DNA from: a bacterium
Lineage (GTDB): Bacteria; Joyebacterota; Joyebacteria; Joyebacterales; Joyebacteraceae
Length of the DNA: 64,000 nt
Assembly (NCBI GenBank): GCA_025774935.1
Contig: JALGZK010000001.1
Location: 66,331 to 130,330 of the forward strand
Direction of reading: 5' to 3'
Shown: piece by piece, positions 3,419 to 32,450 of the stretch
Numbering within the stretch: position 1 is the first letter of the stretch
Layout: the number at the start of each line of letters is the position of its first letter
The notes under the pieces: generated by a model
The model's database searches: none
Seen by the model: only the letters and a program-made list of their open reading frames with translations
Told to the model about the DNA's origin: nothing
Made by a program: the position numbers and the translations under genes

Positions 3419-3646
3419 GTGCACGTCAAGATCAGCTACTGCGTTCCTTGAGGATTCGAGGAGCGCGCCGTCCGTGTGGCGGCGGTTCTCGAGACGGAGA
3501 CGGGGATCAGGGCAGAGGTTGTCGAGGGGCCGCACGGGTCGTTCGACGTCGCGGTCGACGGGGAGGTCGTGTACTCGAGGGCGAAGACCGGCGAGCTTCC
3601 GAGCTCAAAGGAGGTCGTCGCTCTCGTGCGTGCGAGGGAGGGCTAG
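3419..3646 (+). CDS. SelW/SelT/SelH (Rdx) family selenoprotein, CxxU motif; TGA 3449-3451 read as Sec
   Basis: AAGGAG RBS, GTG start; translation MHVKISYCVPUGFEERAVRVAAVLETETGIRAEVVEGPHGSFDVAVDGEVVYSRAKTGELP...; not in the ORF track. Confidence 0.9.
3452..3490 (+). promoter_or_regulatory. Putative bacterial SECIS hairpin for the Rdx selenoprotein
   Basis: GCCGTC(3467-3472)/loop CGTGT/GGCGGC(3478-3483); lower stem including GAG 3458-3460 paired with CTC 3488-3490. Confidence 0.75.
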
Positions 3647-3665
3647 GCGCGGAGGTCCGGACGCG

Positions 3666-4412
3666 ATGACCCACGGGACGAAGGCCCCGCTCAAGCTCTA
3701 CCGCGAGCTGGCCACGTGGTGGCCGGTGCTCTCGAACCCCTCCGACTATGCCGACGAGGCGGAGTTCGCACGTAAGCTCTTCACCGAGTCGTGCGACGAG
3801 CTGCCGCGCACCATCCTCGAACTGGGATGCGGAGGCGGGAACAACGCCTCCCATCTGAAGAAGCAGTTCGAGATGACCCTCACGGACATTTCCGCCGAGA
3901 TGCTCGAGGTGAGCCGCTCGCTCAATCCCGAGTGCGAGCACGTGCAGGGCGACATGCGGACTCTCAGGCTCGGTCGCGTCTTCGACGGCGTCTTCGTGCA
4001 CGATGCCGTTACGTACATGACGAGCGAGGGCGATCTCGGGAGCGCGATCGCGACGGCTCACGTTCATTGCCGTCCGGGCGGCGCTGCGGTCTTCATGCCC
4101 GATCACGTGCGGGAGACCTTCCACCCCGACACGAGCCACGGCGGTCACGACCGCGGCGAGCGTGCCCTTCGCTACCTCGAGTGGAGCTGGGACCCCGACC
4201 CGGACGACACCACTTACGTCACTGACATGGTCTACGTGCTCCGCGAGAAGAACGGACGGGCGCGGATAGAGCACGACCGTCACGTCTGCGGGCTCTTCCC
4301 GCGGGACACGTGGCTGCGGCTGCTCGAGGAGGTGGGATTCGAGCCGCGGGTCATCATAGACCAGTACGAGCGCGACGTTTTCGTCGCGAGGAGACCCCAT
4401 GAAGGAGCTTGA
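3666..4412 (+). CDS. Class I SAM-dependent methyltransferase
   Basis: ILELGCGGG motif I; QGDMR; GGAGG RBS. Confidence 0.9.
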   Translation: MTHGTKAPLKLYRELATWWPVLSNPSDYADEAEFARKLFTESCDELPRTILELGCGGGNNASHLKKQFEMTLTDISAEMLEVSRSLNPECEHVQGDMRTLRLGRVFDGVFVHDAVTYMTSEGDLGSAIATAHVHCRPGGAAVFMPDHVRETFHPDTSHGGHDRGERALRYLEWSWDPDPDDTTYVTDMVYVLREKNGRARIEHDRHVCGLFPRDTWLRLLEEVGFEPRVIIDQYERDVFVARRPHEGA

Positions 4413-5358
4413 CGGGCTGAGATGGGTGCCGAGGTGGACCTCGCACATGGGCTGTCTGAAGGGCTGCCTCGACTACCTCGGCGTCGAGGTGAGCGACGCG
4501 TGGCTCTACGGCGCTACCGGCCATGCGTTCGTCATCAACATGCACGAGGTCGTGTGTCCGAGCGGGCCGACGGCCTGGCACACGGGGATGATCCACACGC
4601 TAGCGAAGAACGTGGGATGCGAGGGCGAGGTGCTCTTCGCGACCACTCGGGAGCCCGGGTTCGCGGAAGCAAAGGAGCGCGCGTGGGAGACGTTCCGGTC
4701 CGCGATCGACGAGGGGACTCCGTGCTACGGGTGGGAGCTGGCCGTGCCGGAGTTCTACGTTCTGTACGGATACGACGAGGTGGGCTATCACTTCTCGGGC
4801 TGCGCGCACGACGAGGGCGCCGGACCGAAGCCGTGGCAGGAGCTCGGCGACACGGGCATCGGCTGTCTCGAGCTCGTGAGCGTTCGGGAGGGGACTCCGG
4901 CCGACGACGCGGCGACCGTCCGCGATGCCCTCGCGTTCGCGCTGGAGCACGCAGGGCGTCCCTCGAAGTGGATATTCCCCGGCTACGCGTCGGGGCTCGG
5001 GGCCTACGACACCTGGGTCCGCTCGGTTGAGGCGGGGACCGCTGTCGCGGTCGGAATGGGATACAACTCCCAGGTGTGGGCCGAGTGTCGTATGTATGGT
5101 GTGGGGTTTCTCGAGGAGGCGGGCGAGCGGCTGTCTGCCGGCCTCCGACCGCTCCTCGGAGAGGCGGCCCGCCGCTACAGGGAGGCCGCGGAGTCGCTGC
5201 GCGAGGTGGCTGCCACCTACCCCTTCACGCCGGGGCTGTCCGAGGACGCCATCGGCGTGGACGCGCGCACGGAGGCGGTGGTCGTCGCGCTCAGGAGGGC
5301 GCGCGAGGCGGAGGCCGCAGGGCTCGACTCGCTCGCCGCGATCGTCGCGAGCATCTGA
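4399..5358 (+). CDS. Hypothetical protein (BtrH N-terminal/papain-like candidate)
   Basis: Long ORF overlapping the upstream stop; MGCLKGCLDYLG...WLYGATGHAF, YVLYGYD. Confidence 0.6.
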   Translation: MKELDGLRWVPRWTSHMGCLKGCLDYLGVEVSDAWLYGATGHAFVINMHEVVCPSGPTAWHTGMIHTLAKNVGCEGEVLFATTREPGFAEAKERAWETFRSAIDEGTPCYGWELAVPEFYVLYGYDEVGYHFSGCAHDEGAGPKPWQELGDTGIGCLELVSVREGTPADDAATVRDALAFALEHAGRPSKWIFPGYASGLGAYDTWVRSVEAGTAVAVGMGYNSQVWAECRMYGVGFLEEAGERLSAGLRPLLGEAARRYREAAESLREVAATYPFTPGLSEDAIGVDARTEAVVVALRRAREAEAAGLDSLAAIVASI

Positions 5359-5368
5359 GAGGGGAGTG

Positions 5369-6226
5369 ATGGCGCAGGAGCCGCGGCTGACCTTGAGCAT
5401 CGCCCACGCCGCCGCGTCGCGTCTGGCCTCCGGCCGTCCGGAGGCGAAGTTCCGCGACGGCTATCCGGCGTACGTCCGTGACATCGACGACAACCTGATC
5501 CCGGGCGTCACGCGGTCCGACTTCGCGGACGACCTCCTTGGGGGCGACGGCATCGAGTTCGCGGAGATCGGCGGACAGCCGCCGCGATTCAGCGCCGCGC
5601 ACTCGTCGGCCGCGATCGCCGTCAACACGTTCGCGCCGTTCAGGCGTTCTCCGGAGAGCCTCTCGTTCGCCGGACACTCCGGGTTCACGCTCGCCAGGTT
5701 CGGGAAGCGTCTGAACACGGGTCTCACGGGGTCTCCGCCGTCGCTCGCGTTCTACGCCGCAGGGCCGTCGGGAATCGTGGCGGTAGAGGGGGTCTTCACG
5801 GAGCCTCTCGTCCAGAAGTTCGCGAGCTTCACGCTCGACTACGACCGGGCGATGGCCGACATCGACGATCCTCCCTGGAACGCCGTGTACTCCTCGCTGC
5901 AGCGGGAGCCGAAGCGGTTCAGGAAGCTGGACGCCGCCCAGCTCGTGATGCACTACCTCGGGCTCCACTACAGCCTCCAGGACGAACCGGCCCCGAAGAC
6001 GCTCGTGTATCTGTACTGGGAGCCGACGAACGCGGAGGACGTGGAGGAGTTCCGGGATCACCGATACGAGGTGCTGACGTTCTCTGTAGCCGTCTCGGGC
6101 AGCGCCGTTCCGTTCGTGAGCATGAGCTATCCGGAGTTGTGGGAGCGCTGGGAGGACGAAGCGAGCTGGTCGGGAGCGGCCGAGCACGTTGCACGCCTGA
6201 GGGAGCGATACCTGTTTGCGTTGTGA
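5369..6226 (+). CDS. PGN_0703-like PD-(D/E)xK nuclease-fold protein, apparently degenerate active site
   Basis: AAHSSAAIAVNTFAPF, VAVEGVFTEP, LDAAQLVMHYLGL, LVYLYWEP motifs. Confidence 0.6.
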   Translation: MAQEPRLTLSIAHAAASRLASGRPEAKFRDGYPAYVRDIDDNLIPGVTRSDFADDLLGGDGIEFAEIGGQPPRFSAAHSSAAIAVNTFAPFRRSPESLSFAGHSGFTLARFGKRLNTGLTGSPPSLAFYAAGPSGIVAVEGVFTEPLVQKFASFTLDYDRAMADIDDPPWNAVYSSLQREPKRFRKLDAAQLVMHYLGLHYSLQDEPAPKTLVYLYWEPTNAEDVEEFRDHRYEVLTFSVAVSGSAVPFVSMSYPELWERWEDEASWSGAAEHVARLRERYLFAL

Positions 6227-6311
6227 GCGGCGCGGGCGCACCGCAGACGGCCGGCAGGGTGCAGGATTCGCGGTCGTGTCGGGTACGCGACCGCATCGGG
6301 GAGGGAGCGCA

Positions 6312-6821
6312 ATGACACGATGGCTCGTCGTGCCGGTGATCGTCCTCTGCATGCTCGCCGGCTGCCGGGAGGCCGCGATCGAGGCTCCCGGACCCCTGGA
6401 AGGGTCGTGGAAGATCGTGGAGATCAGGGTCGTCTCGCAGCGAGGGGAGTACACCGACCCCGAGCCCGAGCCGGGCCTGTTCATCTTCGGGAAAGAACAC
6501 TACAGCATGATCTGGATGCCGTTCGGCGAGCCGCTCCTCGACTTCGCTGAGATCTGGAGGCCGACCGACGAGGAGAAGCTCACGAGCTGGAACTCGATCG
6601 TCGTGAACACGGGGACCTACACGTACACCGACTCCACGGTGACGACGTATCCGCTCGTGGCGAAGACGCCCGAGTTCGTGGGCGGCTTCGCGGTCTACGA
6701 CTACCGCGTGGTGGCAGACACGCTCTGGATGGAGATGACCGACTGCATGTCGTCGGGCGACGTGCAGGACCCGGGCATCGGGGTCTACACGATGCCGCTC
6801 AAACTCATCCGCGCGGAGTGA
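6312..6821 (+). CDS. Lipoprotein, lipocalin-like beta-barrel
   Basis: Lipobox LAGC; LEGSWKIV; NTGTYTY. Confidence 0.7.
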   Translation: MTRWLVVPVIVLCMLAGCREAAIEAPGPLEGSWKIVEIRVVSQRGEYTDPEPEPGLFIFGKEHYSMIWMPFGEPLLDFAEIWRPTDEEKLTSWNSIVVNTGTYTYTDSTVTTYPLVAKTPEFVGGFAVYDYRVVADTLWMEMTDCMSSGDVQDPGIGVYTMPLKLIRAE

Positions 6822-7162
6822 GGGGGACACACTTGAGTTGTGACTACCTCTACAGGATCCGGCCGACGCGGACGTCGCTCCTGGCCGAGGGGGCGACTGC
6901 CGAGGAGGACCGCGTCATCACAGAGCACTTCGAGTATCTGAAAGGACTCACCCGCGAACGTGTCGTCCTTCTTGCCGGGCGGACACTCAACAGGGACGAC
7001 ACCGGATTCGGCATCGTGATCTTCCGGGCCGAGTCCGAGGGCGACGCGCGCCGCGTCATGGAGAACGACCCGGCCGTCCAGGCGGGCGTGTTCCGCGCCG
7101 AGCTCTTCCCGTACGGCGTGGCTCTCATCGGCGACGAGCTGTGCGACCGGGCCCGCGGCTAG
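6818..7162 (+). CDS. YciI family protein
   Basis: EHFEYL...LAGRT...GIVIFRAESE...MENDPAV. Confidence 0.8.
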   Translation: MRGTHLSCDYLYRIRPTRTSLLAEGATAEEDRVITEHFEYLKGLTRERVVLLAGRTLNRDDTGFGIVIFRAESEGDARRVMENDPAVQAGVFRAELFPYGVALIGDELCDRARG

Positions 7163-7210
7163 CGCGGTCGCGAGGCTCGGCATGGCCCTCGCTCGGGCCA
7201 GGAGGCGAAA

Positions 7211-7426
7211 GTGGCACAACGGCACACACCGACGTTCCTGATGTGGCTCTACTTCGTGCTCGCGATCGGATCGCCGATGACCGCGGGAATCTACCTCGGG
7301 AAGATCGCGGCCGGCGCCGGCGGCGGGACGATGGACGTGGCGCGCGTCGTTATCTTCGGTCTTCTGGGCACCTTCTGGGCGCTCATGTACGGGAACGCCC
7401 GGAAGGAGAGGGGCTCGCAGGCCTGA
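7211..7426 (+). CDS. Small two-TM membrane protein
   Basis: AGGAGG RBS before GTG; two hydrophobic segments. Confidence 0.6.
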   Translation: MAQRHTPTFLMWLYFVLAIGSPMTAGIYLGKIAAGAGGGTMDVARVVIFGLLGTFWALMYGNARKERGSQA

Positions 7427-7471
7427 CGCTCCGCCCATGGCCGCGCGATTGCGGAGGGAGGGGAATCGTCC

Positions 7472-8293
7472 GTGGGGAAGACCCGGAAGAGGCGGGTCCG
7501 TCTCGTCCACTGGAACGAGGCCGAGAGCAGGGAGCGCGCCGGAGCGCTGCGCGCGGCGGGGTACGTCGTCGACCGCTCGCCAGTCGACCGCGAGGCACTC
7601 AAGGCACTGGCCGCTCGGCCGCCGGACGCGATCGTGATCGACCTCACGCGTGCACCTTCCCAGGGCCGCGACCTCGGGCTCTTCCTCAGGAAGCAGAAGT
7701 CGACGCGAGGCATCCCACTCGTCTTCGCCGGCGGGGAACCGGACAAGGTCACGCGGGTGAAGGAGCTCTTGCCTGACGCTGCGTTCACGACCTGGGCTGG
7801 CGTGGGCGCGCGTCTCCGCAAGGCGGTGACGGCGAAACCGACGGCGCCGGTCGTGCCGAACTCGACCTTCGACGCTTACGCCGGAACGCCGCTCCTCAAG
7901 AAGCTGGGCGTGAAGGAGGGCACCGTCGTCGCTCTCGTCGGCGCGCCGGATGGATTCGAGAAGGCGCTCGGAACGCTTCCCGACGACGCGGTAGTACGGC
8001 GGGGCGCGCGCGGGCGTCCGGACCTCGCGATCTGGTTCGTGAGGTCGCGGAAGGAGCTCGAGGGACGCGTCGAACGGATGAAGGCCTTCGGGTGGCGACA
8101 CGCCCTCTGGATCGTCTGGCCGAAGAAGGCCTCGGGGATCGCGAGCGACGTCTCACAGAAGGTGGTGAGGGAGACGGGGCTCGGCGCGGGGATCGTGGAC
8201 TACAAGGTGTGCTCCGTCGACGAGACGTGGTCGGGACTCAAGTTCGCGAGACGCAAGGCGAACAGCAGAGTGACGAGACTCAAGTCTGGGTGA
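7472..8293 (+). CDS. Receiver-like domain fused to DUF3052-like domain
   Basis: N-terminal PPDAIVIDL...G.DL...LR....TRGIPLVF; C-terminal PLLKKLG...LWIVWPKKASG...DYKVCSVDETWSGLKF. Confidence 0.7.
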   Translation: MGKTRKRRVRLVHWNEAESRERAGALRAAGYVVDRSPVDREALKALAARPPDAIVIDLTRAPSQGRDLGLFLRKQKSTRGIPLVFAGGEPDKVTRVKELLPDAAFTTWAGVGARLRKAVTAKPTAPVVPNSTFDAYAGTPLLKKLGVKEGTVVALVGAPDGFEKALGTLPDDAVVRRGARGRPDLAIWFVRSRKELEGRVERMKAFGWRHALWIVWPKKASGIASDVSQKVVRETGLGAGIVDYKVCSVDETWSGLKFARRKANSRVTRLKSG

Positions 8294-8358
8294 GACCGGG
8301 GGAACTTGATCGGGCGAAGAGCGCGGGCTGGCGCCGCCCGACGGACAGGGAGGTTCAC

Positions 8359-9264
8359 GTGGGACGACAGCCGACTCCTGACAGCGTGTGGCGGATCGAG
8401 TTCGCGAAGGAGGTCATCCGGCCCTATGTGGAGCAGCCGGGCATCAAGATGATCGTCCTCTCCGGCTCGCCGCCGAAAGGACTCTCAGACCAGTACTCGG
8501 ATCTCGATCTCATCGTGTTCTGGGACGCCATCGACGGCGACTGGCTCGAGGCAGAGCCGCTCTCCGGCATCGAGTGCGACCGGAGGTACTTCCGGAAGAT
8601 GGGCGAGGCCGACCTCTATCTCGAGGGGTACTACTTCGGGAACCTGAAGGTCGACTTCGGTCACTCGACTCTCGCGGACTGGAAGGACACCGTCGACGGC
8701 GTGCTCGAGCGCCACGAGTTCGACGCGGACACCTTCGACGCGATCGCGGGGTTCAGAACGTCGCTTCCCCTCGTCGGCGAGGAACTCGCTCTCGACTGGA
8801 AGAGGCGGCTCGAGGAGTACCCGGATGAGATTCGAACGAAGGTCGTCGGCCAGCACATGAGGATGTTCGTTCCGGGCTATCTCCTCAACCAGGCGCTCAA
8901 GCGCGGCGACGTTCTCGCGTACTACGACGGACTGTGCCTGATGTTCAAGAACATGCTGAACATCCTCGCGGGCCTGAACCGGGTGTACATGTCGACCGGC
9001 GAGCCTCGGTGGATCGAGTACTACCTCGGGCTGATGCCCATCCGCCCGGAGAACGCGTGGGAGCGAATGCGCACGGCGCTCGAGTCGGACGGGGAGACGG
9101 CCGTCGAGATTCTCGAGGAGCTCACGGAGGATATCCTCGGGCTCGTCGCGACGCACATGCCGGAGGTCGCCGACCGCGTGGAGCGCATCCGCACGATGCG
9201 TCCGCAGATGGCGGTCGAGGGCACGCCGGACAGACCGGAGATGAGGGAGAGGACGAAGGCGTGA
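8359..9264 (+). CDS. Nucleotidyltransferase-fold protein with helical C-terminal domain
   Basis: LSGSPPKGLSDQYSDLDL (GS...DxD); GGAGG RBS. Confidence 0.7.
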   Translation: MGRQPTPDSVWRIEFAKEVIRPYVEQPGIKMIVLSGSPPKGLSDQYSDLDLIVFWDAIDGDWLEAEPLSGIECDRRYFRKMGEADLYLEGYYFGNLKVDFGHSTLADWKDTVDGVLERHEFDADTFDAIAGFRTSLPLVGEELALDWKRRLEEYPDEIRTKVVGQHMRMFVPGYLLNQALKRGDVLAYYDGLCLMFKNMLNILAGLNRVYMSTGEPRWIEYYLGLMPIRPENAWERMRTALESDGETAVEILEELTEDILGLVATHMPEVADRVERIRTMRPQMAVEGTPDRPEMRERTKA

Positions 9265-9779: not shown

Positions 9780-9788
9780 GAGGGCACC

Positions 9789-10061
9789 TTGCTTCCGAAG
9801 GAGCAGGACAGGACGTTCGCGGCGTTCTCTCGAGCGGCCAAGGAGAGTGTCGAGCTCGACCCGAAGACGACGGTCATGCTCCATCTGGCGGCGGCGATGG
9901 CCGTCGGGTGCTACCCCTGAGCGGAGCACTACCTTGGCGGCGCCAGGGACCAGGGCATGACGGACGACGAGATCGGAGCGGTCGAGGCGATCGTGATGTC
10001 GGTGGCGGCGTGCCGTGTTCGGTCGCAGTTCGCGGAGATAGTCGAGCGAGCAGGCGGGTAG
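9789..10061 (+). CDS. AhpD/carboxymuconolactone decarboxylase-like selenoprotein, CxxU motif; TGA 9918-9920 read as Sec
   Basis: AGGAGG RBS, TTG start; ...ELDPKTTVMLHLAAAMAVGCYPUAEHYLGGARDQGMTDDEIGAVEAIVMSVAA...; the CMD fold continues past the TGA; not in the ORF track. Confidence 0.88.
9932..9948 (+). promoter_or_regulatory. Putative SECIS hairpin for the AhpD-like selenoprotein
   Basis: CCTTGG/loop CGGCG/CCAGGG, following an 11-nt spacer after the TGA. Confidence 0.6.
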
Positions 10062-11042: not shown

Positions 11043-11062
11043 AGGAAGCTCGCAGGAGGAGT

Positions 11063-14691: not shown

Positions 14692-14880
14692 ATGGCGGAG
14701 GAGAAGAAGGGCCAGAGCAGCTGCTGCATCATCGTCTGCTGCGGTTCGGACGAGGACGCCAAGGGCGTGAAGATCGTCTGCTGCGATCCTGACGGCGCGA
14801 AGGAGATGATGAAGAAGTTCGAGAACTGCTGCGCGCCCGCGGATGACTGCTGCGAGCCGAAGGACGACTCGAACGAGTAG
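14692..14880 (+). CDS. Small Cys-rich protein with five CC pairs (metallothionein-like candidate)
   Basis: Strong RBS; MAEEKKGQSSCCIIVCCGSDEDAKGVKIVCCDPDGAKEMMKKFENCCAPADDCCEPKDDSNE. Confidence 0.8.
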   Translation: MAEEKKGQSSCCIIVCCGSDEDAKGVKIVCCDPDGAKEMMKKFENCCAPADDCCEPKDDSNE

Positions 14881-14990
14881 GTCCGGCAGCGGCTGACGCC
14901 GTGTCGCCCGCCGGTACCGAACCGACGGGCGGCGCGGCCCGGGCTCCGACACGAGGCAGACGGGAGCCCGCTGAGGAGAGGGAACGAGCC

Positions 14991-16463
14991 ATGAGACCGC
15001 GCGCTTCAGAACAGGCCGAGCGATACTCGAGGGCCGCGAGCCTTACCGTCCTCGAGATCGACGTGGACTGCGATGTGCTCCTCCCGGCGTATCTCATCGC
15101 GAACATGATGTCACCGGCGCTCTGGGCGTGGAGGGACGAACGTAGAGCGCACGCGCGTGACGGCGCGCCGCTCGGAGTGCGGAGACGTCTCAAGGGGCTC
15201 GAACGGCAGTTCCACCGGTACACGTTCACGAACATACCGGGCGAACCGGGCGGCGATCCTTGGGGGCTTCTGTACTTCCCGGAAGAGGAACGCAGGCTTG
15301 GCGAGGGCTTCGTCCGAGGCGTGCGGGCCGACTACGACGCCGCACTGCGGGCGGTCCTCGCGCAGAGCCCGGACAGCCAGTTCGGGAACATCGTGAATCA
15401 GGACTACTACAGGGCGGGTTACTTCCCGCGGCTGAGGAACGAGCTCATTGAGACGATGGACGCCTACGCGGGGGTCTCGCACGACGGGAAGGCCTCGGGG
15501 AAGTGCGTCGCGCTGGCGCTCCTGTGGGCGGCAGCCCTCATCGTGTGGGGGCGGTTCTCGCCCGGTGACGTGATCCTGATCGGCAACCGTTCCCATCTCT
15601 TCGTGTATCTCGATCAGGAAGAAGGCCACCTCTTCAACAACACGAGGTGGTTCAGCCGCACGCGCATCCACAACTCCTCCGAGGTCTCCGAACTCGTGAG
15701 GATGGTGACCACGGGATCCGAGACGACGTTCCTCTACAACCCGTGGCAGGGGATGTGCCACTGCACCGACGGGAGGTCGACGATTGCGGAGGAGCGGCTC
15801 GACGACCTCTGCGGGAAGGTGCAGGGCTTTCTCGCGAGTCCTCTCAAGCAGCCCGACGCCTCCGAGCTCAGGTTCGCCGGCGAGGAGGAGCCCCTCCTGG
15901 ACCCCAGGTCGTTCGCATGCGCGGACGATTTCCAGTCGGCGGTCTGGATCCTCGCCGACCGTCGCCCGGGATCCGCCTACGACTTCGCGCAGTACGCGTT
16001 CCGCAGGATCGACGTGCCACGACCGGACGCGTACGTCCTGGCGGCGCTGCGCGACTATCACACGAAGAGGGCGGCGGCTTCCGTCGCGACCCTGGAGGAC
16101 GCAGTGTCGATCGTGAAGAGTGTCCGCGGGCGACGGTCGGTCTTCGGGAGCCGAGGGAGGGTAGCTCTTCCTGACGAGACGCTCTACTTCGATACCGGCG
16201 ACGACCGCGATCGCGCGCTCCTTCTTTTCACGCTGCTCGCGCAGTCGAGGCTGGCGGACCCCACTTCTGTCATCGGGTTCTCCGAGCACAACAGCTATGT
16301 CCGCCACGATGGGAGGTGGATCGAGTGCAGAACGCTGTCGCATGCGAGCTCCGCCCCGCGGAGGCTCACGCACCTCTTCAATGGCTCTGGGAGCTCCCGT
16401 CGCCCGTACGTGCGCGTGGCGCCGGAGTCGGCTTCGGGTCTTCCGGCGGCGGCGGCCCCCTGA
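14991..16463 (+). CDS. Hypothetical protein with two transglutaminase-like segments
   Basis: GKCVALALLW...SHLF...LFNN and GDDRDRALLLFTLL. Confidence 0.6.
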   Translation: MRPRASEQAERYSRAASLTVLEIDVDCDVLLPAYLIANMMSPALWAWRDERRAHARDGAPLGVRRRLKGLERQFHRYTFTNIPGEPGGDPWGLLYFPEEERRLGEGFVRGVRADYDAALRAVLAQSPDSQFGNIVNQDYYRAGYFPRLRNELIETMDAYAGVSHDGKASGKCVALALLWAAALIVWGRFSPGDVILIGNRSHLFVYLDQEEGHLFNNTRWFSRTRIHNSSEVSELVRMVTTGSETTFLYNPWQGMCHCTDGRSTIAEERLDDLCGKVQGFLASPLKQPDASELRFAGEEEPLLDPRSFACADDFQSAVWILADRRPGSAYDFAQYAFRRIDVPRPDAYVLAALRDYHTKRAAASVATLEDAVSIVKSVRGRRSVFGSRGRVALPDETLYFDTGDDRDRALLLFTLLAQSRLADPTSVIGFSEHNSYVRHDGRWIECRTLSHASSAPRRLTHLFNGSGSSRRPYVRVAPESASGLPAAAAP

Positions 16464-16740
16464 CGGGACCGTGGAACGTCCTGGGTGGGCAGTCCGCTCG
16501 CGGCGTCTTCCGCCCCTCCGCCTGTGGTTGTGCGAACGGGGCGACCGCCTGTCTCGACTGATCGTCCTGGAGGCCGGACGTTGCCCCTCTCGGGGCATAC
16601 CGCGCCGTCCGGGCCTCCGACTCCTCGGCACCCGAGGTGCCTCTCACCACCGCGCCCCCGGCCGTTCCCGCGATCCTGGCCGGGGGCGCACCTTGCCAGG
16701 ACACCGGAAAGCCCTGGACCCGCCGCGCCGGTCCGCCCTG

Positions 16741-16809: not shown

Positions 16810-17094
16810 GTGACCGAGAGAAAGGCCGTCCGACACGGCGAGTGGATCAAGCTGGGAACGGAGACGGCGGTCGACGCCGTCGTCTGCGATGTCTACGAGT
16901 CGACCCGGAGCAACGGGGCGGACGCGGCGGTCGTGTACCGCGATGCCGAAGGCCGCGCCGTCTACGAGGAGGTCAGGTGGGACGGCTCGCGCTGGGACTT
17001 CCTGTACTCGGGCCCCTGTGGGCTTCACGCCAGGTGCGTCTCGTGCGCCGAGAAATACCTCGAAGTGCTGGAGCGGGGACGGACAGACGCGTGA
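16810..17094 (+). CDS. Hypothetical protein
   Basis: GGAGG RBS; GC-ending codons; fills a + strand gap. Confidence 0.6.
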   Translation: MTERKAVRHGEWIKLGTETAVDAVVCDVYESTRSNGADAAVVYRDAEGRAVYEEVRWDGSRWDFLYSGPCGLHARCVSCAEKYLEVLERGRTDA

Positions 17095-17199
17095 GGAACG
17101 CCGGAGTCGTGTGAGCGAAGGGGCCGGTGAGTGCGGGAGTCATCCGAGGGTCGGCGTCGTCCGGGCGCCGGTTTGAGCGAGTGCTCCCGGGGAGGTCGT

Positions 17200-17508
17200 A
17201 TGAAGGTGATCGCGGACTTCAGTGTGGTGCCGATCGGCGTGGGCGTGTCTGTCTCGAAGTACGTCGCGGTCTGCCACCGCATTCTGTCGGAGGCAGGACT
17301 CCCGACCCGGCTCCACGCGTACGGGACGAACGTCGAGGGCGAGTGGGACGCGGTGTTCGGGGCCATCCGGAGGTGCCACGAGGAGATCCACACGATGGGG
17401 GCGCCGCGGATCTCGACCGTCATCAAGGTCGGGACGAGAACGGACCGGGACCAGACGATGCTCGACAAGATCGGGAGCGTCGAGTCGAAGCTGGACGAGG
17501 AGCGTTGA
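17200..17508 (+). CDS. MTH1187 family thiamine-binding protein
   Basis: FSVVPIG...SVSKYVA...HAYGTNVEGEWD...GAPRI...GTRTD. Confidence 0.9.
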   Translation: MKVIADFSVVPIGVGVSVSKYVAVCHRILSEAGLPTRLHAYGTNVEGEWDAVFGAIRRCHEEIHTMGAPRISTVIKVGTRTDRDQTMLDKIGSVESKLDEER

Positions 17509-17933
17509 TGGAGATCCGTCCGTACCGGGAGAACGACGAGGCGGCCATCGCAGGACTCTGGCGAGAGGTCTTCCCGGACGCGCCTCCGTGGAACGTGCCG
17601 GAAGACGACATCAGGAGGAAGCTCGAGGTTCAGCGAGACCTCTTTGTGGTCGCGTGCGAGGGCGGCGAGATCGTCGGGACCGCGATGGGGGGCTACGACG
17701 GGCATCGGGGGTGGGTGCACCTCGTGGCCGTGAGCCCGCGGCACAGGAGGCTCGGGATCGGGGCGGCGCTGATGCGGCGCATCGAGGAGGGTCTGGCGGC
17801 GCTCGGCTGCCCGAAGCTCAACCTGCAGGTGCGCTCAACGAACGGGGACGTCGTCGCGTTCTACGAACGGCTTGGCTACGCCGTCGAGGACCGCGTGAGC
17901 ATGGGCAAGCGACTCGGCACCGACGGGGGGTGA
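17508..17933 (+). CDS. GNAT acetyltransferase (YpeA-like)
   Basis: MGGYDGHRGW...GCPKLNLQVR. Confidence 0.9.
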   Translation: MEIRPYRENDEAAIAGLWREVFPDAPPWNVPEDDIRRKLEVQRDLFVVACEGGEIVGTAMGGYDGHRGWVHLVAVSPRHRRLGIGAALMRRIEEGLAALGCPKLNLQVRSTNGDVVAFYERLGYAVEDRVSMGKRLGTDGG

Positions 17934-17935
17934 CG

Positions 17936-18673
17936 ATGGATTTCTTCGACTTCAAGAACATCGCGGAACGCAACATGGAGATCGTCAACCCGACGACCCC
18001 GGAGAAGCTCTTGGAGGTCGGACGGCTTCTCGGGCTCGCTGAGGGCGACCGGGTCATCGACTTCGGCTGCGGGTACGCCGAGGCGCTCGTCCTCTGGGCG
18101 GAGAACTTCGGGATCTCGGGCGTGGGAGTGGACGTTCGCCCAGCGGCGTGCGAGAGGGCGGAGCAGAAGCTGCACGGGCGGGGCCTTTCGGACCGAATCG
18201 AGATCGTGTGCGGGAAGGGAGCCGACTACGCGTTCGAGGAGGGTTCCTTCGACGCCGCTACCTGCATCGGAGCCACGTTCGTGTGGCGGGGGTTCCTGCC
18301 CTCGGTGAGAGCCATGAAGCGCGCGATCCGACCGGGGGGGAGGCTCGCGATCGGGGAAGCGTACTGGCTCTCCGACGACGTGCCGCACGAGTACGCGACG
18401 TCGGAGCCGGAGATCCACCAGGAGCACCGGCTCCTCGAGTGGACGCGCGAGGAGGGCTTCGACGTGGAGGCGGTGGTCCGCGCCACGACTGGGGAATGGG
18501 ACCACTACGAGTCGGGCAACTGGCGCGGCCTTCTCGCATGGCTCGGCGAGAACCCCGACCACCCCGAGCGGCGCGAGGTCATCGACCACCTGCGCGAGTC
18601 CCAGGACGAGTACTTCAGGTACACCCGAAGCTGGGTCGGGTGGGCCATGTACGTCCTGCTGCCGACCGAGTAG
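17936..18673 (+). CDS. SAM-dependent methyltransferase (YjhP-like)
   Basis: I.NP.TPEKL; VIDFGCGYAE; CIGAT; IGEAYW. Confidence 0.85.
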   Translation: MDFFDFKNIAERNMEIVNPTTPEKLLEVGRLLGLAEGDRVIDFGCGYAEALVLWAENFGISGVGVDVRPAACERAEQKLHGRGLSDRIEIVCGKGADYAFEEGSFDAATCIGATFVWRGFLPSVRAMKRAIRPGGRLAIGEAYWLSDDVPHEYATSEPEIHQEHRLLEWTREEGFDVEAVVRATTGEWDHYESGNWRGLLAWLGENPDHPERREVIDHLRESQDEYFRYTRSWVGWAMYVLLPTE

Positions 18674-18711
18674 GGGCGCGGCTCCGGCGCTCCGCGAAGG
18701 AGGAGGAGAGC

Positions 18712-19269
18712 GTGGACGAGGATCGCGGGCGCATCAAGGTGTACCAGCGGTATCCCTGGTCGAGCGTTCTCATCTACAACGGAGTGACCGTCGTCCACTT
18801 CGTGCTCGGCGCCATGGGCATCGTCGCCGGGTACGGGAACTCGCCGCTCGTCACGGCGCTTGCGTGGGCGTACCTTGCGTTCGCCTTCGTCGAGATGTAC
18901 GTGATCATGCCCTTCGCCGTGTGTCGGCACTGCGCCTACTACTTCGCCGAGGACGCTCTCTGCGTCTCCGGCCTGAACGTGGTCTCGAGGCGCGTAGCTC
19001 GGCCCGGGAAGAGGAAGCGCTTCGCGGAGCGGGCGGACGGGTTCTTCAGCCACAACACGGCGTACATGGGGGCGCTCTTCCTGCCGATCGCCGCGATGAT
19101 CCCGGCGCTCTTCCTGAGCTTCTCGGCGCGGCTCCTCATCATCCTGCTTCTCGTCGTAGGGCTCCTGCTCCTCCGGTTCTTCGTGATCTTCCCGAAGATC
19201 GCGTGCGGCAGATGCGCGGCGAAGTACGATTGCCCGAACGCGGCGTCGATGGGGCTCGACAAGACCTGA
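18712..19269 (+). CDS. Four-TM membrane protein with two Cys clusters
   Basis: AGGAGG RBS; CRHC...C and CGRC....CP. Confidence 0.7.
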   Translation: MDEDRGRIKVYQRYPWSSVLIYNGVTVVHFVLGAMGIVAGYGNSPLVTALAWAYLAFAFVEMYVIMPFAVCRHCAYYFAEDALCVSGLNVVSRRVARPGKRKRFAERADGFFSHNTAYMGALFLPIAAMIPALFLSFSARLLIILLLVVGLLLLRFFVIFPKIACGRCAAKYDCPNAASMGLDKT

Positions 19270-19326
19270 CAAATGAGGATGGGGTCTCTGGGGACCGGGG
19301 CATTCCCAGACAGGAACGGAGGCGCA

Positions 19327-19713
19327 ATGGGGTATCACTTCACGAAGAAGGTCGATCTCTCGTTCGAGGAAGCGATCGCTGCTGCCGTCGAGGGGCTCAA
19401 GGAAGAGGGCTTCGGGATCATGTCGGAGATCGACGTGAGGGCGACCCTCAAGAAGAAGCTGGACGTCGACTTCCGGAACTACCGCATCCTGGGCTCGTGC
19501 CACCCGTACTACGCCCACAAGGCGCTCGAAGCGGAGCCAAAGATCGGTCTCATGCTCCCGTGCAACGTCGTGGTGGAGGAGACGCCCGGAGGGGACGTCG
19601 AGGTCTCCGCGATCGACCCCATCGCGTCGATGGCGGCGGTCGAGAACGCGGCGCTCGAGGAGATCGCACCGCAGGTTCGTGAGAAGCTCCGGAGCGTCAT
19701 CGAGAAGCTGTAG
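19327..19713 (+). CDS. DUF302 domain protein
   Basis: EGFGIMSEIDV...YRILGSCHP...IGLMLPCNVVV...SAIDP. Confidence 0.9.
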   Translation: MGYHFTKKVDLSFEEAIAAAVEGLKEEGFGIMSEIDVRATLKKKLDVDFRNYRILGSCHPYYAHKALEAEPKIGLMLPCNVVVEETPGGDVEVSAIDPIASMAAVENAALEEIAPQVREKLRSVIEKL

Positions 19714-19796
19714 GGAGGGCGGCCTCGCAGGCCGGCGAAGCACGGCCGTCGGTGCCGGCGCGGGGTAGATCTGGTCGAGGCCGTGAGGAGGTGCGC

Positions 19797-26473: not shown

Positions 26474-26522
26474 CTGCGCGCGGGTACGGCTCCCGGCGCG
26501 ACAGCGGATAAGGAGGACGGAC

Positions 26523-26840: not shown

Positions 26841-26895
26841 GTCGGGGTCGTGGCGGCGAGGCCCGGTCGAGGGGCCAGTGAGAGGGAGGCGCAAG

Positions 26896-27105: not shown

Positions 27106-27126
27106 TGGGGGAGACAGGGGGAGAGG

Positions 27127-27492: not shown

Positions 27493-27500
27493 GGTGCACG

Positions 27501-27914
27501 TTGGCGAACACGGAAGACCGCACAGACAAGAAGCGGGCGAAGTACGAAGCGAAGGCGGAGAAGGCACGCGCCAAGGCCGACCTCAAGGCGGCCGAGGCGC
27601 GCGAGCGCGCCCGCGTCGAGGAGACCAGGGTCCTCGCGGAGGTCGGCGGCAGGGGCCTGCCGAGAGGTGTCGGGATCGCTCTCGAGAGGCGCGGCGGGAC
27701 GTCGCAGCTCGTCGTCTCCGGCCTGAGCGAGGAAGCGGTCGACCGGCTCGTGCCCGAGATCACGAAGGAGCTCCTGATCGGAGCCGCGGCCGAGCGGAGC
27801 CGCCTCCGCGCCGGGGCGATGAGGTTCGTTCGCGAGGGGGTCGTCCCGACGATCGTCAAGGTGGTAGCCGGACTGATCGTCGGCTACCTCGTGATCCGCT
27901 TCGGGCTCAGGTAA
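27501..27914 (+). CDS. Hypothetical protein with C-terminal TM
   Basis: GAGG RBS and TTG start; charged helix, then TM. Confidence 0.55.
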   Translation: MANTEDRTDKKRAKYEAKAEKARAKADLKAAEARERARVEETRVLAEVGGRGLPRGVGIALERRGGTSQLVVSGLSEEAVDRLVPEITKELLIGAAAERSRLRAGAMRFVREGVVPTIVKVVAGLIVGYLVIRFGLR

Positions 27915-28011
27915 CCGTTCGGCGCGGGCAGCGAGGGCAACGGCTTCCGGTTCCGCCTCGCGGCGCGGCTCGAGCCACCGCGCAGGGGCGACTTGTGCGG
28001 CGGTGATTCCG

Positions 28012-28020
28012 TGCTATACT
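28012..28020 (+). promoter_or_regulatory. Extended -10 promoter candidate
   Basis: TGCTATACT upstream of the M20 peptidase. Confidence 0.45.
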
Positions 28021-28071
28021 CCGCGGCACGATTTCGGCAGAGACACGTGGACGCCAATGCAGGGAGAGGAC

Positions 28072-29451
28072 ATGACAGACAGGCGGGCGGCGGCGGTCGA
28101 GCACGCGCGAGCGAACAGCGACAGGATCCTGGAGGAGCTTTCGGACTTCCTCTCGATCCCGTCGATCTCGAACGACCCTACGAGTGAGTCCGACATCGAT
28201 GGAGCGGCCAATTGGATGGCGGATCGTCTCCGTGCTCTGGGGCTCGACGACGTCGGCGTGCTTCCCACGGGCGGCAACCCCGTCGTCTACGGTGAGAGCC
28301 TCTCCGCCGGTGATTCCGCGCCCACGGTCCTCGTCTACGGACACTACGACGTGCAGAGCCCGTCCCCGCTCAAAGGCTGGGACAGCAAGCCCTTCCAGGC
28401 GACCGTCCGGGGCGAGAAGCTCTACGCGCGCGGCGCCTCCGACAACAAGGGCCAGATCATGGCCTGCGTCGCGGCGGTCGAGGCTGCGGCGAGCGCAGGG
28501 CCGCTCCCGGTCAACGTCAGGTTCCTGATTGAGGGAGAAGAGGAGATCGGGTCTGTCAACCTTCTGGACTTCCTGCGGGAGAACAAGTCACGGCTCGGAG
28601 CCGACGTCGTCCTGAACCCCGACGCGGGCATGCTCGGTGCGGACAGGCCGACTGTCTACTACGGTCTGCGCGGGATGTACGTGTGCACCCTCCGCGTGTC
28701 CGGCCCCTCGCGGGACCTCCATTCGGGTGGGTACGGCGGCGTCGTCCACAACCCGATCCACGCGCTCAGCAAGGTCATTGCCGGCATGCACGACTGCGAG
28801 CGCCGGGTGGCGCTTCCGTCCTTCTACGACAGCGTGCGGGACATGACGCCGGAGGAGCGCGCCGAGATGGCGGCGCTTCCGAGGGGAGACGCGTCGTATC
28901 TGGAACAGTCAGGAGTGCCCGAGCTCTGGGGGGAGCGGGACTACATCGCGGCCGAGAGGGAGGGCGCGCGTCCGGCGCTCGACGTCATCAGAATCTCGGG
29001 CGGCAGCACGAAGTCGGCCATCCCGATTGCCGCGGAGGCGATCCTCACGGTGCGGCTCGTTCCCGACCAGTCGCCCGACGAGGTGCACGAACAGCTCCTC
29101 CGCTACCTCGAGAGCCACGTACCACCGACGGTGAACTGGGAGGTGCTCGACTGGTCCGGGTTCCCGGCGTCGCTCACGGACCGGAACTCCGCGGCGGTGC
29201 AGTCGCTGAGCGCAGCGATGGAGACGGTGTGGGGACGGAAGCCCGTCTACTACAGGAGCGGTGGGAGCATCGCCGCGGTCGGCCAGATGCAGAGCGCGCT
29301 GGGTGTCGACTCCCTCCTGACGGGATTCTCGCTCCCGGACGACCACGTGCACGGACCGAACGAGAGGATCCATCTGCCGACGTGGCGGCGCGGAATCGAG
29401 GCCCTCGTCCACTTCCTCTATAATATGGCCGACGGGGCCGCCGCTCAGTAG
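28072..29451 (+). CDS. M20 family dipeptidase
   Basis: YGHYDVQ, ARGASDNKG, EGEEEIGS, DLHSG, HGPNE. Confidence 0.92.
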   Translation: MTDRRAAAVEHARANSDRILEELSDFLSIPSISNDPTSESDIDGAANWMADRLRALGLDDVGVLPTGGNPVVYGESLSAGDSAPTVLVYGHYDVQSPSPLKGWDSKPFQATVRGEKLYARGASDNKGQIMACVAAVEAAASAGPLPVNVRFLIEGEEEIGSVNLLDFLRENKSRLGADVVLNPDAGMLGADRPTVYYGLRGMYVCTLRVSGPSRDLHSGGYGGVVHNPIHALSKVIAGMHDCERRVALPSFYDSVRDMTPEERAEMAALPRGDASYLEQSGVPELWGERDYIAAEREGARPALDVIRISGGSTKSAIPIAAEAILTVRLVPDQSPDEVHEQLLRYLESHVPPTVNWEVLDWSGFPASLTDRNSAAVQSLSAAMETVWGRKPVYYRSGGSIAAVGQMQSALGVDSLLTGFSLPDDHVHGPNERIHLPTWRRGIEALVHFLYNMADGAAAQ

Positions 29452-29469
29452 CCTCGGGAGGAGGCTCGC

Positions 29470-30009
29470 GTGCGCCTCGAACTGCTCGCTGCGACGGATG
29501 CCGACTACGAGGTGGTGAGGAACCTCGTACCGCTCTACGTCCACGACATCTCCGAGTGGATGGGGTGGGACTGCCCGGAGTCGGGGTACTTCGGCGGTTG
29601 CGACGATCTGCCGCTGTACTGGGGAATGCCGCCCACGGACCCGCGCTACAGGTGGCCCGGCAGCTGGCGGGGCTTTCCGTTCATGATCCGGGTGGACGGC
29701 CGGCTCGCCGGCTTCGCGCTCGTTCGCAGGCTCCAGGAGGGAGCCCCCCCCGTCTACGAGATCGCCGAGTTCTTCGTCCTCAGGAAGTACCGCCGGAGCG
29801 GAGTGGGTCGAGAGGCTGCGCACGGGATCTTCGACACCCTCGAGGGCAGTTGGGAGGTCAGGGAACTCCTGGGCAACAGGCCGGCGCAGGACTTCTGGAG
29901 GAAGGTCATCTCGGAGTACACGCACGGCGCCTTCGAGGAGACCGTGGAGCCGGCCGTAACGGGTCCCTTCGAGATGCTGACGCAGAGGTTTACGAGCACC
30001 GGAAGTTGA
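29470..30009 (+). CDS. GNAT N-acetyltransferase
   Basis: EIAEFFVLRKYRRSGVG; N.PAQ.FW. Confidence 0.85.
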   Translation: MRLELLAATDADYEVVRNLVPLYVHDISEWMGWDCPESGYFGGCDDLPLYWGMPPTDPRYRWPGSWRGFPFMIRVDGRLAGFALVRRLQEGAPPVYEIAEFFVLRKYRRSGVGREAAHGIFDTLEGSWEVRELLGNRPAQDFWRKVISEYTHGAFEETVEPAVTGPFEMLTQRFTSTGS

Positions 30010-30058
30010 ACGCGAGCATCGGAAGTGAGACGGGCGGGCAAGCGAAGCGGGAGGCGAC

Positions 30059-30454
30059 GTGACGGGAATCGACGCGCAGATCACGTTCTGCTACACGCTC
30101 GATCTCGCAGGCACGGCGAGGTTCTACGAGGACGTGCTCGGACTGCGGCTCGCGCTCGACCAGGGCGGCTGCCGCATCTACCGCGTCGCCGGAAGCGCGT
30201 ACCTCGGCTTCTGTGAGAGGGAGGACGCGGCGCGTCCGGCGGGAGTGCTCTTGACGCTCGTGACCGACGACGTCGACGGCTGGCACGAGAGGCTCGCGTC
30301 CGCGGGCGTCACGTTCGACAGGCCACCCGCGCACAACCCGGAGTACGCGATCTACCACTGCTTCTGCCGCGACCCGAACGGCTACGTGATCGAGATCCAG
30401 CGTTTCGACGATCCGGCCTGGGACGGATGCGGAAGGGAGGCCGGCGGGGAGTAG
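30059..30454 (+). CDS. VOC/glyoxalase family protein
   Basis: FYEDVLGL...DDVD.W...RDPNGYVIEI. Confidence 0.9.
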   Translation: MTGIDAQITFCYTLDLAGTARFYEDVLGLRLALDQGGCRIYRVAGSAYLGFCEREDAARPAGVLLTLVTDDVDGWHERLASAGVTFDRPPAHNPEYAIYHCFCRDPNGYVIEIQRFDDPAWDGCGREAGGE

Positions 30455-30458
30455 GGCG

Positions 30459-31484
30459 ATGGAGAGCGGAACGGCGAGAGAGGTGATGGGCGAGGCGACG
30501 AAGCCCGTCGTCCGGCACGCGACCTCCACGATGACCGCCGCGGACTGGTGGGACCACCTCCTTGCGCGGTGGTCGATCGACCGACAGGGACACCGGGTGG
30601 AGCCGGGACTCTACGCCCTCGGGACCCCGGACAGGGCGGCCCCCGTCTTCGTCACCGCGAACTACACGCTGAGCTTCGACGCTCTCAGGACGGCGGTCGG
30701 GGACATCGACTGCTACATCGTCGTCCTCGACACGCTCGGGGTCAACGTCTGGTGCGCGGCCGGGAAGGGGACGTTCGGGACCGACGAGCTCGTCCGCAGG
30801 GTCGAGGCGACCGGACTCGCCGACGTGGTGGACCACAGGCGACTCATCGTGCCACAGCTCGGCGCGACCGGGGTCGCAGCACACGAGGTCACGAGGAGGA
30901 CAGGCTTCCGCGTGGAGTACGGACCCGTGCGCGCCGCGGACATCCCGGAGTACCTGGAGCTCGGCGAGGCGACGGCGGCGATGCGGCGGATGACCTTCCC
31001 GCTCAAGGACCGCCTGGTGCTCATCCCCGTGGACCTCGTGAAGGCGCTTCCGTTCGGGCTCGGGGCGGCGATCCTGCTCTACTTCCTCGGGGGCCCCCTT
31101 CTCGCCTGGGCTGCCCTCACGGCGGTTCTGGCGGGAGCCGTCCTCTTCCCGATCCTCCTCCCGTGGCTCCCGACCCCCAATTTCAGCACGAAGGGGCTCA
31201 TTCTCGGGGTCGTCGCGGCGGTGCCGTTTCTGGTAGGCTGGTTGGGTGGGCGGCAGGAACTCGGGCCGTGGTTCCTCTACGGGGGTGCCCTTGCGCTCCT
31301 GCTCACGATGCCCCCGGTGACCGCCTACATAGCCCTGAACTTCACCGGCTCGACGACGTACACCTCGAAGACCGGCGTCGAGAGGGAGATACGGAGGTAC
31401 ATCCCCGCCATGGTCTGGACGTTCGGGGCGGGCCTCGTGCTCGCGATCGTCCTCGCCGTGGCGGCGAAGGTCGGAGGGCGATGA
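30459..31484 (+). CDS. hgcA: Mercury methylation corrinoid protein HgcA
   Basis: Cap-helix motif GVNVWCAAGKGTFGT; VTANY; PQLGATGV; C-terminal TM domain ending NFTGSTTYTS. Confidence 0.95.
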   Translation: MESGTAREVMGEATKPVVRHATSTMTAADWWDHLLARWSIDRQGHRVEPGLYALGTPDRAAPVFVTANYTLSFDALRTAVGDIDCYIVVLDTLGVNVWCAAGKGTFGTDELVRRVEATGLADVVDHRRLIVPQLGATGVAAHEVTRRTGFRVEYGPVRAADIPEYLELGEATAAMRRMTFPLKDRLVLIPVDLVKALPFGLGAAILLYFLGGPLLAWAALTAVLAGAVLFPILLPWLPTPNFSTKGLILGVVAAVPFLVGWLGGRQELGPWFLYGGALALLLTMPPVTAYIALNFTGSTTYTSKTGVEREIRRYIPAMVWTFGAGLVLAIVLAVAAKVGGR

Positions 31485-31903
31485 TGTACGACGCCTACGC
31501 GACGAATACACTCGAATACGACCCGACGCTCTGCGCCGGCTGCTGGACGTGCATGGCCGTCTGTCCGCACGAGGTCTTCGCGCGGGAGAACGGCGTCGTC
31601 CGGGTCGCCCACGCGCCTTCGTGCATGGAGTGCGGCGCGTGCCAGCTGAACTGCCCGACCGGGGCGCTCAAGGTAGACAGCGGGGTGGGCTGCGCGTACG
31701 CCATCATCTGGTCCGCTCTCACCGGGCGGGATGACCTGAGCTGCTGCGGGGACAGGGCGCCCAGCTCGCGCGGAGGAGACGCAGAGGCCGCTCAGGAGCA
31801 GTCCCGGCCCGCAGGGTGCTGCGGAGAGCCGGTGCAGGAGAGCGCGGCTTCGTCCCCGGAGGGGGCGAAGCCGGGCGACGATGGCGACTGCTGCTGCGGG
31901 TGA
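31481..31903 (+). CDS. hgcB: Mercury methylation ferredoxin HgcB with extended Cys-rich tail
   Basis: ATGA overlap with hgcA; CAGCWTCMAVCPH, CMECGACQLNCP, SGVGCA; tail CCG...CCG...CCCG. Confidence 0.93.
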   Translation: MMYDAYATNTLEYDPTLCAGCWTCMAVCPHEVFARENGVVRVAHAPSCMECGACQLNCPTGALKVDSGVGCAYAIIWSALTGRDDLSCCGDRAPSSRGGDAEAAQEQSRPAGCCGEPVQESAASSPEGAKPGDDGDCCCG

Positions 31904-31988
31904 CGAACTGGATTCGATGAATGTGAGTCGGAAGAGCCGACGCCGCGGGGGGACGATCGTCTCCCGTCGGGCTTCACTGGGAGGTGTC

Positions 31989-32450
31989 ATGAGATCGACG
32001 CGCACCGGAAGGGCGCTGGGGTGCCTGCTCGTGCTCGCACTGGCCGCCGTCCCGCTCGGAGGATGCTCGGAGAAGAACGGCGGCGAGCCGACGACGGAGA
32101 CTGTCCAGACCGAGAAGAAGGGCGTCTCACGGATAACGCCTGAGGAAGTGAAGGCGCGGATGGACGGCGGGGAGACGTTCGTGTTCGTCGACTCACGGAG
32201 CGCGCAGTCCTGGAAGGGATCGACGAAGAAGCTCCCGGGAGCCATCCGTGTTCCCTCCAGCGAGGTTGCAGAGCATCTCGACGAGATCCCCAGGGAGGGC
32301 GTTGTCGTCGTCTACTGCACGTGACACAACGAGGGATCCAGCGCCCGTGTGGCGCTCGAGCTCATGGGGGAAGGCTGGGAGAACGCCTACGCGCTCAGGG
32401 GCGGGTACGGGGCCTGGGTCGAGGGAGGACTCCCGGTGGAGGACAAGTAG
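31989..32450 (+). CDS. Rhodanese-domain lipoprotein selenoprotein, CxU motif; TGA 32322-32324 read as Sec
   Basis: Lipobox LGGC; VDSR, LPGAIRVP, VVVYCTUHNEGSSARVALELMGEGWENAYALRGGYGAWVEGGLPVE; the rhodanese C-terminal signature lies after the TGA. Confidence 0.9.
32325..32363 (+). promoter_or_regulatory. Putative SECIS hairpin for the rhodanese selenoprotein
   Basis: AGCGCC(32340-32345)/loop CGTGT/GGCGCT(32351-32356); GAG 32331-32333 can pair with CTC 32361-32363. Confidence 0.75.

Follow-up and report, generated by a model that had tools for sequence, protein, structure and literature searches.

The selenocysteine insertion sequence (SECIS) of Escherichia coli fdhF is a hairpin directly 3′ of the UGA codon, with a bulged U and with an upper stem-loop that carries a G-U in its apical loop and binds SelB. 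The excerpt of PMC13188914 consulted here calls it the best-studied element of its kind and summarises the bSECISearch model of Zhang and Gladyshev for bacterial SECIS elements: an apical loop of 3–9 nt on an upper stem of 4–16 bp, a G at loop position 1 or 2 (mostly N1-G-[G/U]-N-N2), a UGA-to-loop distance of 16–37 nt and an energy of ≤ −7.5 kcal/mol. SelW-like proteins, AhpD-like/carboxymuconolactone decarboxylase (CMD) proteins and rhodanese-related sulfurtransferases are listed as selenoprotein families in the consulted portion of PMC1088965. Here we analyzed a 64,000-nucleotide stretch of DNA (the window; positions 66,331 to 130,330 of contig JALGZK010000001.1, assembly GCA_025774935.1), which is part of contig 1 of a draft genome (3.24 Mb, 66.7% G+C) from the uncultured phylum Joyebacterota (31 species genomes, one family, in the genome collection). 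Three genes in the window, encoding a SelW/SelT/SelH (Rdx) protein, a CMD protein and a rhodanese-related protein, carry an in-frame UGA with a hairpin directly 3′ of it, and we consider it very probable that the three hairpins are ordinary bacterial SECIS elements that fit the published consensus. SelB would then be expected to bind them, and selenocysteine (Sec) to be inserted at the three UGAs. The kind of hairpin and the selenoprotein families are already known.

Three genes with in-frame UGA codons and the published SECIS model

The features, with offsets counted from the first base 3′ of the TGA as +1, are as follows.

3419..3646, plus strand: SelW/SelT/SelH (Rdx) selenoprotein gene, 75 codons, GTG start (Pfam, NCBIfam)
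3449..3451, plus strand: in-frame UGA of the Rdx gene, predicted to be read as selenocysteine (direct reading, Pfam span)
3466..3484, plus strand: predicted Rdx SECIS upper stem-loop, 7 bp (+15..21/+27..33), loop CGUGU at 3473-3477 (folding, direct reading)
9789..10061, plus strand: AhpD-like/CMD selenoprotein gene, 90 codons, motif C-Y-P-U (Pfam)
9918..9920, plus strand: in-frame UGA of the CMD gene, predicted to be read as selenocysteine (Pfam span, folding)
9932..9948, plus strand: predicted CMD SECIS stem-loop, 7 bp (+12..18/+22..28) with a GGC triloop, or 6 bp with CGGCG (folding)
31989..32450, plus strand: rhodanese-related selenoprotein gene, 153 codons, lipoprotein-type signal (LGGC), motif Y-C-T-U (Pfam, NCBIfam)
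32322..32324, plus strand: in-frame UGA of the rhodanese gene, predicted to be read as selenocysteine (direct reading, Pfam span)
32340..32356, plus strand: predicted rhodanese SECIS upper stem-loop, 6 bp (+16..21/+27..32), loop CGUGU at 32346-32350 (folding, direct reading)

A Pfam domain spans each of the three UGAs. The Rdx protein has C-V-P-U at residues 8–11, with Sec as U11, and this N-terminal CxxU/CxxC-type motif coincides with a domain over its curated cut-off: PF10262 (Rdx) covers residues 2–71 across U11 (3.5e-16, 59.6 bits, cut-off 22.6), and TIGR02174 (SelT/SelW/SelH) is passed as well, at 51.8 bits (cut-off 34.2). In the CMD protein, PF02627 covers residues 8–78 across U44 (1.1e-11, 45 bits, cut-off 23) and the CxxU lies in the AhpD core; in NCBIfam it comes closest to the selenoproteins MduS and ArsM_AhpD_UU, matching their AhpD domains at scores far under the full-length cut-offs. 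The rhodanese protein matches PF00581 at residues 50–145 across U112 (2e-12, 47.9 bits, cut-off 22.2). Its best family by far is NF041203 (rhodanese_LYCAU, 'rhodanese-related (seleno)protein') at 105.1 bits, and because this falls under the equivalog cut-off of 115, the sequence classes it as a rhodanese-domain selenoprotein close to NF041203, not an equivalog. From known rhodanese selenoproteins (NF041203, and those in the portion of PMC1088965 consulted) it differs in its C-T-U motif, its sub-cut-off score, its lipoprotein-type signal peptide and its uncultured host.

Direct reading found every base listed in the original prediction. In both the Rdx and the rhodanese gene, GAG occupies +7..9, the arms of a 6-bp stem lie at +16..21/+27..32 (GCCGUC/GGCGGC and AGCGCC/GGCGCU, respectively), CGUGU fills +22..26 and CUC stands at +37..39; the CMD gene has a 6-bp stem CCUUGG/CCAGGG at +12..17/+23..28 around CGGCG. 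The bare Rdx, rhodanese and CMD hairpins fold at −10.6, −9.2 and −9.4 kcal/mol, with loops of 5, 5 and 3 nt that lie 21, 21 and 18 nt after the UGA. Loop and stem size, the position of the G, spacing and energy all agree with the published model; the three elements share its every feature, and we found no qualitative difference from it.

We propose that a SECIS within the coding region, directly 3′ of each UGA, would offer its upper stem-loop (6–7 bp, a small apical loop with G then G/U, about 18–21 nt from the UGA) to SelB. When the ribosome arrives at the UGA, SelB would bring Sec-tRNA(Sec), and selenocysteine would become part of a redox motif of the form CxxU or CxU. The machinery for this is complete in the genome. 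Family profile searches of the genome gave matches above cut-off for selA (533.2 bits), selB (344.6 bits) and selD (371 bits, with one in-frame TGA), and a tRNA-Sec adjoins selD on contig 14 (ARAGORN; Rfam RF01852, 71.5 bits), so that the whole set looked for in a host of bacterial SECIS elements (SelA, SelB, SelD and tRNA-Sec) is present. A second ARAGORN tRNA-SeC (contig 36: 9124-9202, minus strand, 79 nt) had no Rfam match at E ≤ 0.01 and is probably a false call. The likeness to E. coli fdhF lies in the hairpin at the UGA, and HdrA in this genome has a GGUC loop; unlike E. coli, the genome yielded no formate dehydrogenase selenoprotein on search (best Fdh-alpha match 273 bits against a cut-off of 666, without an in-frame stop). 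The whole window matched no Rfam family at gathering score, and bacterial SECIS was absent among the families giving any match in three Rfam searches.

Controls and conservation of the hairpins

A different account of the hairpins is that they are a by-product of GC-rich coding for Ala/Arg/Val helices, without RNA function, the UGAs being stops or otherwise read through. In its perfect-stem version the published model is matched after 16 of the 19 Sec sites of the genome-wide set described below, as compared to 78 of 585 TGA stops of confident long open reading frames (ORFs) and 230 of 2000 in-frame Cys codons. When the G[G/U] pattern is also required, the counts are 16/19 against 22/585 and 67/2000 (Fisher p = 2e-11 for the first version and 2e-18 for the second), and all 21 SECIS elements eventually found in the genome have G[G/U] in the loop. 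That about 11–13% of control sites pass the loose model is what coding alone could produce; the Sec sites pass far more often, and they lie in a genome with complete Sec machinery, which argues against this account. A narrower motif (stem ≥ 6 bp, loop 3–5 nt, G at +18..30) was found at 18 of 19 Sec sites versus 11/585, 102/6259 and 1431/76120 control sites. A natural negative control was provided by an esterase gene, in which an in-frame TGA without the motif corresponds to Gly in orthologues.

We then compared the hairpins among orthologues. Rhodanese orthologues with a single in-frame TGA were present in 8 of the 31 phylum genomes, spanning 5 genera, and in one Pyrinomonadaceae genome from another phylum. 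The CGUGU loop stands at the same position in all of them (9/9), and the helix is 92.6% paired. The loop U depends on CGU, which makes up 7.7% of the Arg codons of this genome and is invariant in the nine orthologues. One stem pair is C-G in seven orthologues, U-G in one and U-A in one, a change that costs two residues, Ala to Val and Ala to Thr, one on each arm. Both the fixed rare codon and the pair held through two substitutions count against a coding by-product. Rdx homologues occurred in 10 of 61 genomes searched and carried the TGA in every case (10/10). Their hairpin position is constant, 8 of 10 rows have a G as the second loop base, and the loops are CGUGU (2), AGGGU (2 identical rows), AGGUU, AGUUU (2), AGUCU and 2 less clear sequences. 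Across 9 distinct homologues the Rdx upper stem is 87.0% paired, two pairs are altered on both sides, and the covariation score was matched by 4 of 500 shuffles. CMD homologues in the phylum had both the TGA (4/4) and the hairpin (4/4), with loops of CGGCG, CGUCG (2) and AGUUG. Added orthologue loci (four from the genome contig collection and a distant one from metagenome contigs) were taken from among the matches listed, and the sets stayed small (9 and 10). The claim of selection at the RNA level made in the original prediction is upheld by these comparisons. Its reading of the differing Rdx and rhodanese stems as compensatory changes is not, since across non-homologous genes such stems are independent solutions, and true compensation is found only within the orthologues of each gene.

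Cys-type homologues of the rhodanese protein gave a further comparison: the motif followed the anchor Cys in 1 of 11, a crude control in which a regular expression set the anchor, 5 of the 16 loci had no anchor and 2 anchors were evidently wrong. This, too, counts against an origin in coding alone. Separately, a rhodanese homologue in an unrelated genome (its contig 62) reads L-Y-U-T-U, with TGA at both the Cys and the Sec position followed by one strong hairpin, and may have a double-Sec active site.

Several observations count against taking the hairpins for SECIS elements. Three of the 19 Sec sites fail the published model in its perfect-stem version. The narrower motif (18/19 versus about 1.9%) was set post hoc and is partly circular, and the proteins BetaH1 and UshA-like entered the Sec set partly on their hairpins, the UshA-like protein later passing NF041198. 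Folding of the +1..+45 segments, which the original prediction had put forward as a check, gave energies unremarkable relative to shuffles (z = −1.58, −0.73 and −0.49 for Rdx, rhodanese and CMD; 17, 44 and 62 of 200 shuffles folded as well), weak scores of the kind a coding by-product would give. Rhodanese covariation was not significant (108 of 500 shuffles reached it), since the sequences are related and differ little within the element, and in the Rdx alignment a control with partners slid by −3 scored 0.272, versus 0.293 for the true pairing. A Cys homologue in a Dehalococcoidia genome, with YCTCHNE where the protein here reads YCTUHNE, retains a similar GC-rich hairpin (GCGCC/CGCGC/GGCGC); part of the rhodanese stem may therefore follow from GC-rich coding of Ser-Ala-Arg-x-Ala. 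Taking both sides together, we regard a pure coding origin of the hairpins as very unlikely and retain the interpretation as SECIS elements.

The shared CGUGU loop of the Rdx and rhodanese genes

The Rdx and rhodanese genes are non-homologous and share an identical 10-mer, CCGUGUGGCG, at the same spacing. The original prediction took the CGUGU loop at +16/+22, with its GAG/CUC flanks, for a lineage-specific consensus that SelB recognises and that could be used for mining. An exact search for hairpins of ≥ 5 bp with a CGTGT loop gave 52 genome-wide, and a TGA stands in the +22 register in only two of them, Rdx and rhodanese. As only 2 of 52 are so placed, the hairpin and its placement are beyond chance, and this would fit a dedicated consensus, as would the narrow range of apical windows in the genome (14 of 21 begin CG and 5 begin AG). 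A role for the CGTGT hairpin as a general Sec tag was rejected on the same search, which finds only the two known sites.

A covariance model built from 17 distinct Rdx and rhodanese elements (48 gapless columns covering the TGA, spacer, 6-bp stem and 5-nt loop) was run on the whole genome, with 150 of 2467 first-look candidates scored. It recovered its two training loci at 53.1 and 48.7 bits; the next hit, at 19.8 bits (E 0.84), lay at an out-of-frame TGA, and the candidates scored yielded no match to any of the other 19 Sec sites. Those sites vary: their apical G falls between +18 and +30, and they show 13 apical windows other than CGUGU. SelD, which has G at +18 in C-GGA-G, and HdrA, with G at +28 in GGUC, are classical cases that lack the +16/+22 CGUGU form, as do the other Sec genes, so that the proposed comparison with selD turned out negative. 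Homologues of Rdx from the same genus and the same phylum use AGGGU, AGGUU and AGUUU. Outside the phylum, the CGUGU rhodanese hairpin is present in the Pyrinomonadaceae genome, and the features named as lineage-specific are those of the general model in the excerpt of PMC13188914.

The flanks tell the same story. In both genes GAG encodes Glu and CTC encodes Leu, codons that make up 6.4% and 6.0% of the genome's total, and across orthologues the GAG/CUC pairing is retained in just 78% (rhodanese) and 63% (Rdx) of cells. In the minimum-energy fold of the rhodanese segment, CUC pairs with +9..11, not with +7..9. The minimum-energy lower helices are retained in 67% and 48%, respectively. With 63–78% of cells paired in one register and 48–67% in the others, we rejected a conserved lower helix.

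We also asked how often unrelated elements agree. Among the 21 SECIS hairpins of the genome, 7 of 188 cross-family pairs agree in their 5-nt apical window (CGGAG in three pairs; CGGCG, AGUUG, AGGCU and CGUGU in one each), and permuted distances give a mean of 0.72 pairs sharing both window and distance, with P(≥1) = 0.55. The match in CGUGU loop and spacing is coincidental, drawn from a narrow repertoire, and marks no special consensus. The covariance scan and the window permutation thus largely refute a lineage-specific consensus, which we now hold to be highly improbable.

Gene conversion or recombination that copied a SECIS module from one gene into the other would also explain the likeness: the shared 10-mer covers the loop and 3′ arm, and the two genes agree at 24 of the 45 positions that follow the UGA. 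The identity is confined to the loop and adjoining G-C pairs, however, while the outer stem pairs and flanks differ. Rdx homologues have a hairpin at the same place with graded loops, which makes the Rdx element old in its family; its CGUGU arose when the Arg codon AGG became CGU and an Ala changed to Val. For its part, the rhodanese element is fixed in 5 genera within the phylum and in one genome of another. We judge copying to be the least probable of the explanations considered, with hardly any weight. Convergence most probably accounts for the likeness instead: the Rdx and rhodanese elements resemble each other because both answer to one SelB requirement and to a similar coding constraint, both genes encoding Ala/Val-Arg-Val-Ala.

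These results divide the practical proposals of the original prediction. Mining of the selenoproteome works with the general motif, as in the established bSECISearch approach, and does not work with the CGUGU architecture: a model of two look-alike elements fails to generalise, whereas the loose published model does. The same division applies to the test it had set for itself, that the motif should be rarer after true stops and present in known selenoproteins. The general motif is not equally frequent after true stops; the narrow one is absent from SelD, HdrA and others.

The selenoproteome of the genome

The genome has at least 21 genes with a UGA-encoded Sec. A scan of 15,725 in-frame TGAs open on both sides was reduced to 109 by six-frame codon statistics, and 21 were tested with Pfam; filters on GC3 only (316 sites) and on codon log-odds only (211 sites) were dropped as too noisy. 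The best-of-six-frames filter (109 sites) missed SelD, which was found via the selD family search only. Beyond the three window genes, the set comprises a second CMD, five UxxC paralogues, two HdrA, two secreted paralogues of no family, two redoxins, two beta-helix proteins and one UshA-like protein (NF041198 'UshA_like_PCGU', 290 bits, cut-off 275), making 19 with SelD. A scan that combined motif and coding raised the set to 21, with one more UxxC paralogue (the sixth) and one more beta-helix protein (the third). As compared to the bSECISearch model, the elements of this genome occupy a narrow corner: perfect stems of 6–9 bp, loops of 3–5 nt and an apical G mostly at +18..23.

The six UxxC paralogues are secreted proteins, with a signal peptide, the UGA in U-x-x-C-P a few residues on and a C-terminal FlgD-Ig/type IX sorting-type domain. 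They are located as follows.

Contig 1, 177930-179933: UxxC paralogue
Contig 14, 115817-117892: UxxC paralogue
Contig 14, 117905-120004: UxxC paralogue
Contig 21, 18723-19742: UxxC paralogue
Contig 30, 16814-18682: UxxC paralogue
Contig 30, 14808-16733: UxxC paralogue

Because the three beta-helix proteins and one redoxin have the same layout, much of the selenoproteome looks exported, as judged by predicted signals and domains. Two secreted paralogues of ~200 residues (contig 1: 449146-449778; contig 21: 36739-37317) matched nothing in Pfam or NCBIfam. They have a conserved in-frame UGA (G-x-G-U ... Q-x-C-L) with a SECIS-type hairpin, and may represent an undescribed selenoprotein family. Several secreted proteins (this pair, and others on contigs 2 and 28) have in common a C-terminal W-G-x-I-K-x-(L/M)-(F/Y)-R before the stop, possibly a sorting signal of the lineage. 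Among stops of 1532 confident long ORFs, TAG is commonest (841), followed by TGA (589) and TAA (102).

Several candidates were rejected. The esterase (alpha/beta-hydrolase) used above as negative control lies outside the window (contig 1: 28916-29860). Its TGA is inside the Pfam domain, at a position that is Gly (PLAGAERFC) in three orthologues, and the sequences point to a GGA-to-TGA nonsense change or a sequencing error, not a new selenoprotein. In candidate L017 an RseC gene follows a radical SAM gene, in L019 the domain stops before the TGA, and L018, L071, L072 and L073 had no family. Within the window, the TGA at 19267 (18148-19710) is the stop of a membrane-protein ORF, followed by an in-frame DUF302 gene with its own start. 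The hairpin there passes the narrower motif, a false positive of motif-plus-frame mining.

For annotation, the three window genes and at least 18 others are truncated or split by standard pipelines because UGA is read as a stop, and recognition of the SECIS allows full-length selenoproteins to be annotated. This takes no new concept, as the elements fit the 2005 bacterial SECIS consensus and the families are established. The rhodanese gene offers a clean case of coding bent to an RNA hairpin, with its fixed rare CGU and its paired Ala to Val and Ala to Thr. It is unlikely, though less so than the alternatives rejected above, that the phylum as a whole uses an unusually narrow SECIS repertoire (perfect 6–9 bp stems, windows of 3–5 nt, mostly [C/A]G[G/U]NN, G mostly at +18..23). 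Were this true, it could reflect a stricter SelB, and a simple pattern combined with a coding test would recover the whole of an unusually large, largely secreted selenoproteome (at least 21 genes, many of them ending in FlgD-Ig/type IX sorting-type domains). In the same vein, the rhodanese selenoprotein may be passed among phyla along with a CGUGU SECIS that does not change. By count alone, an uncultured lineage is shown to be rich in selenoproteins.

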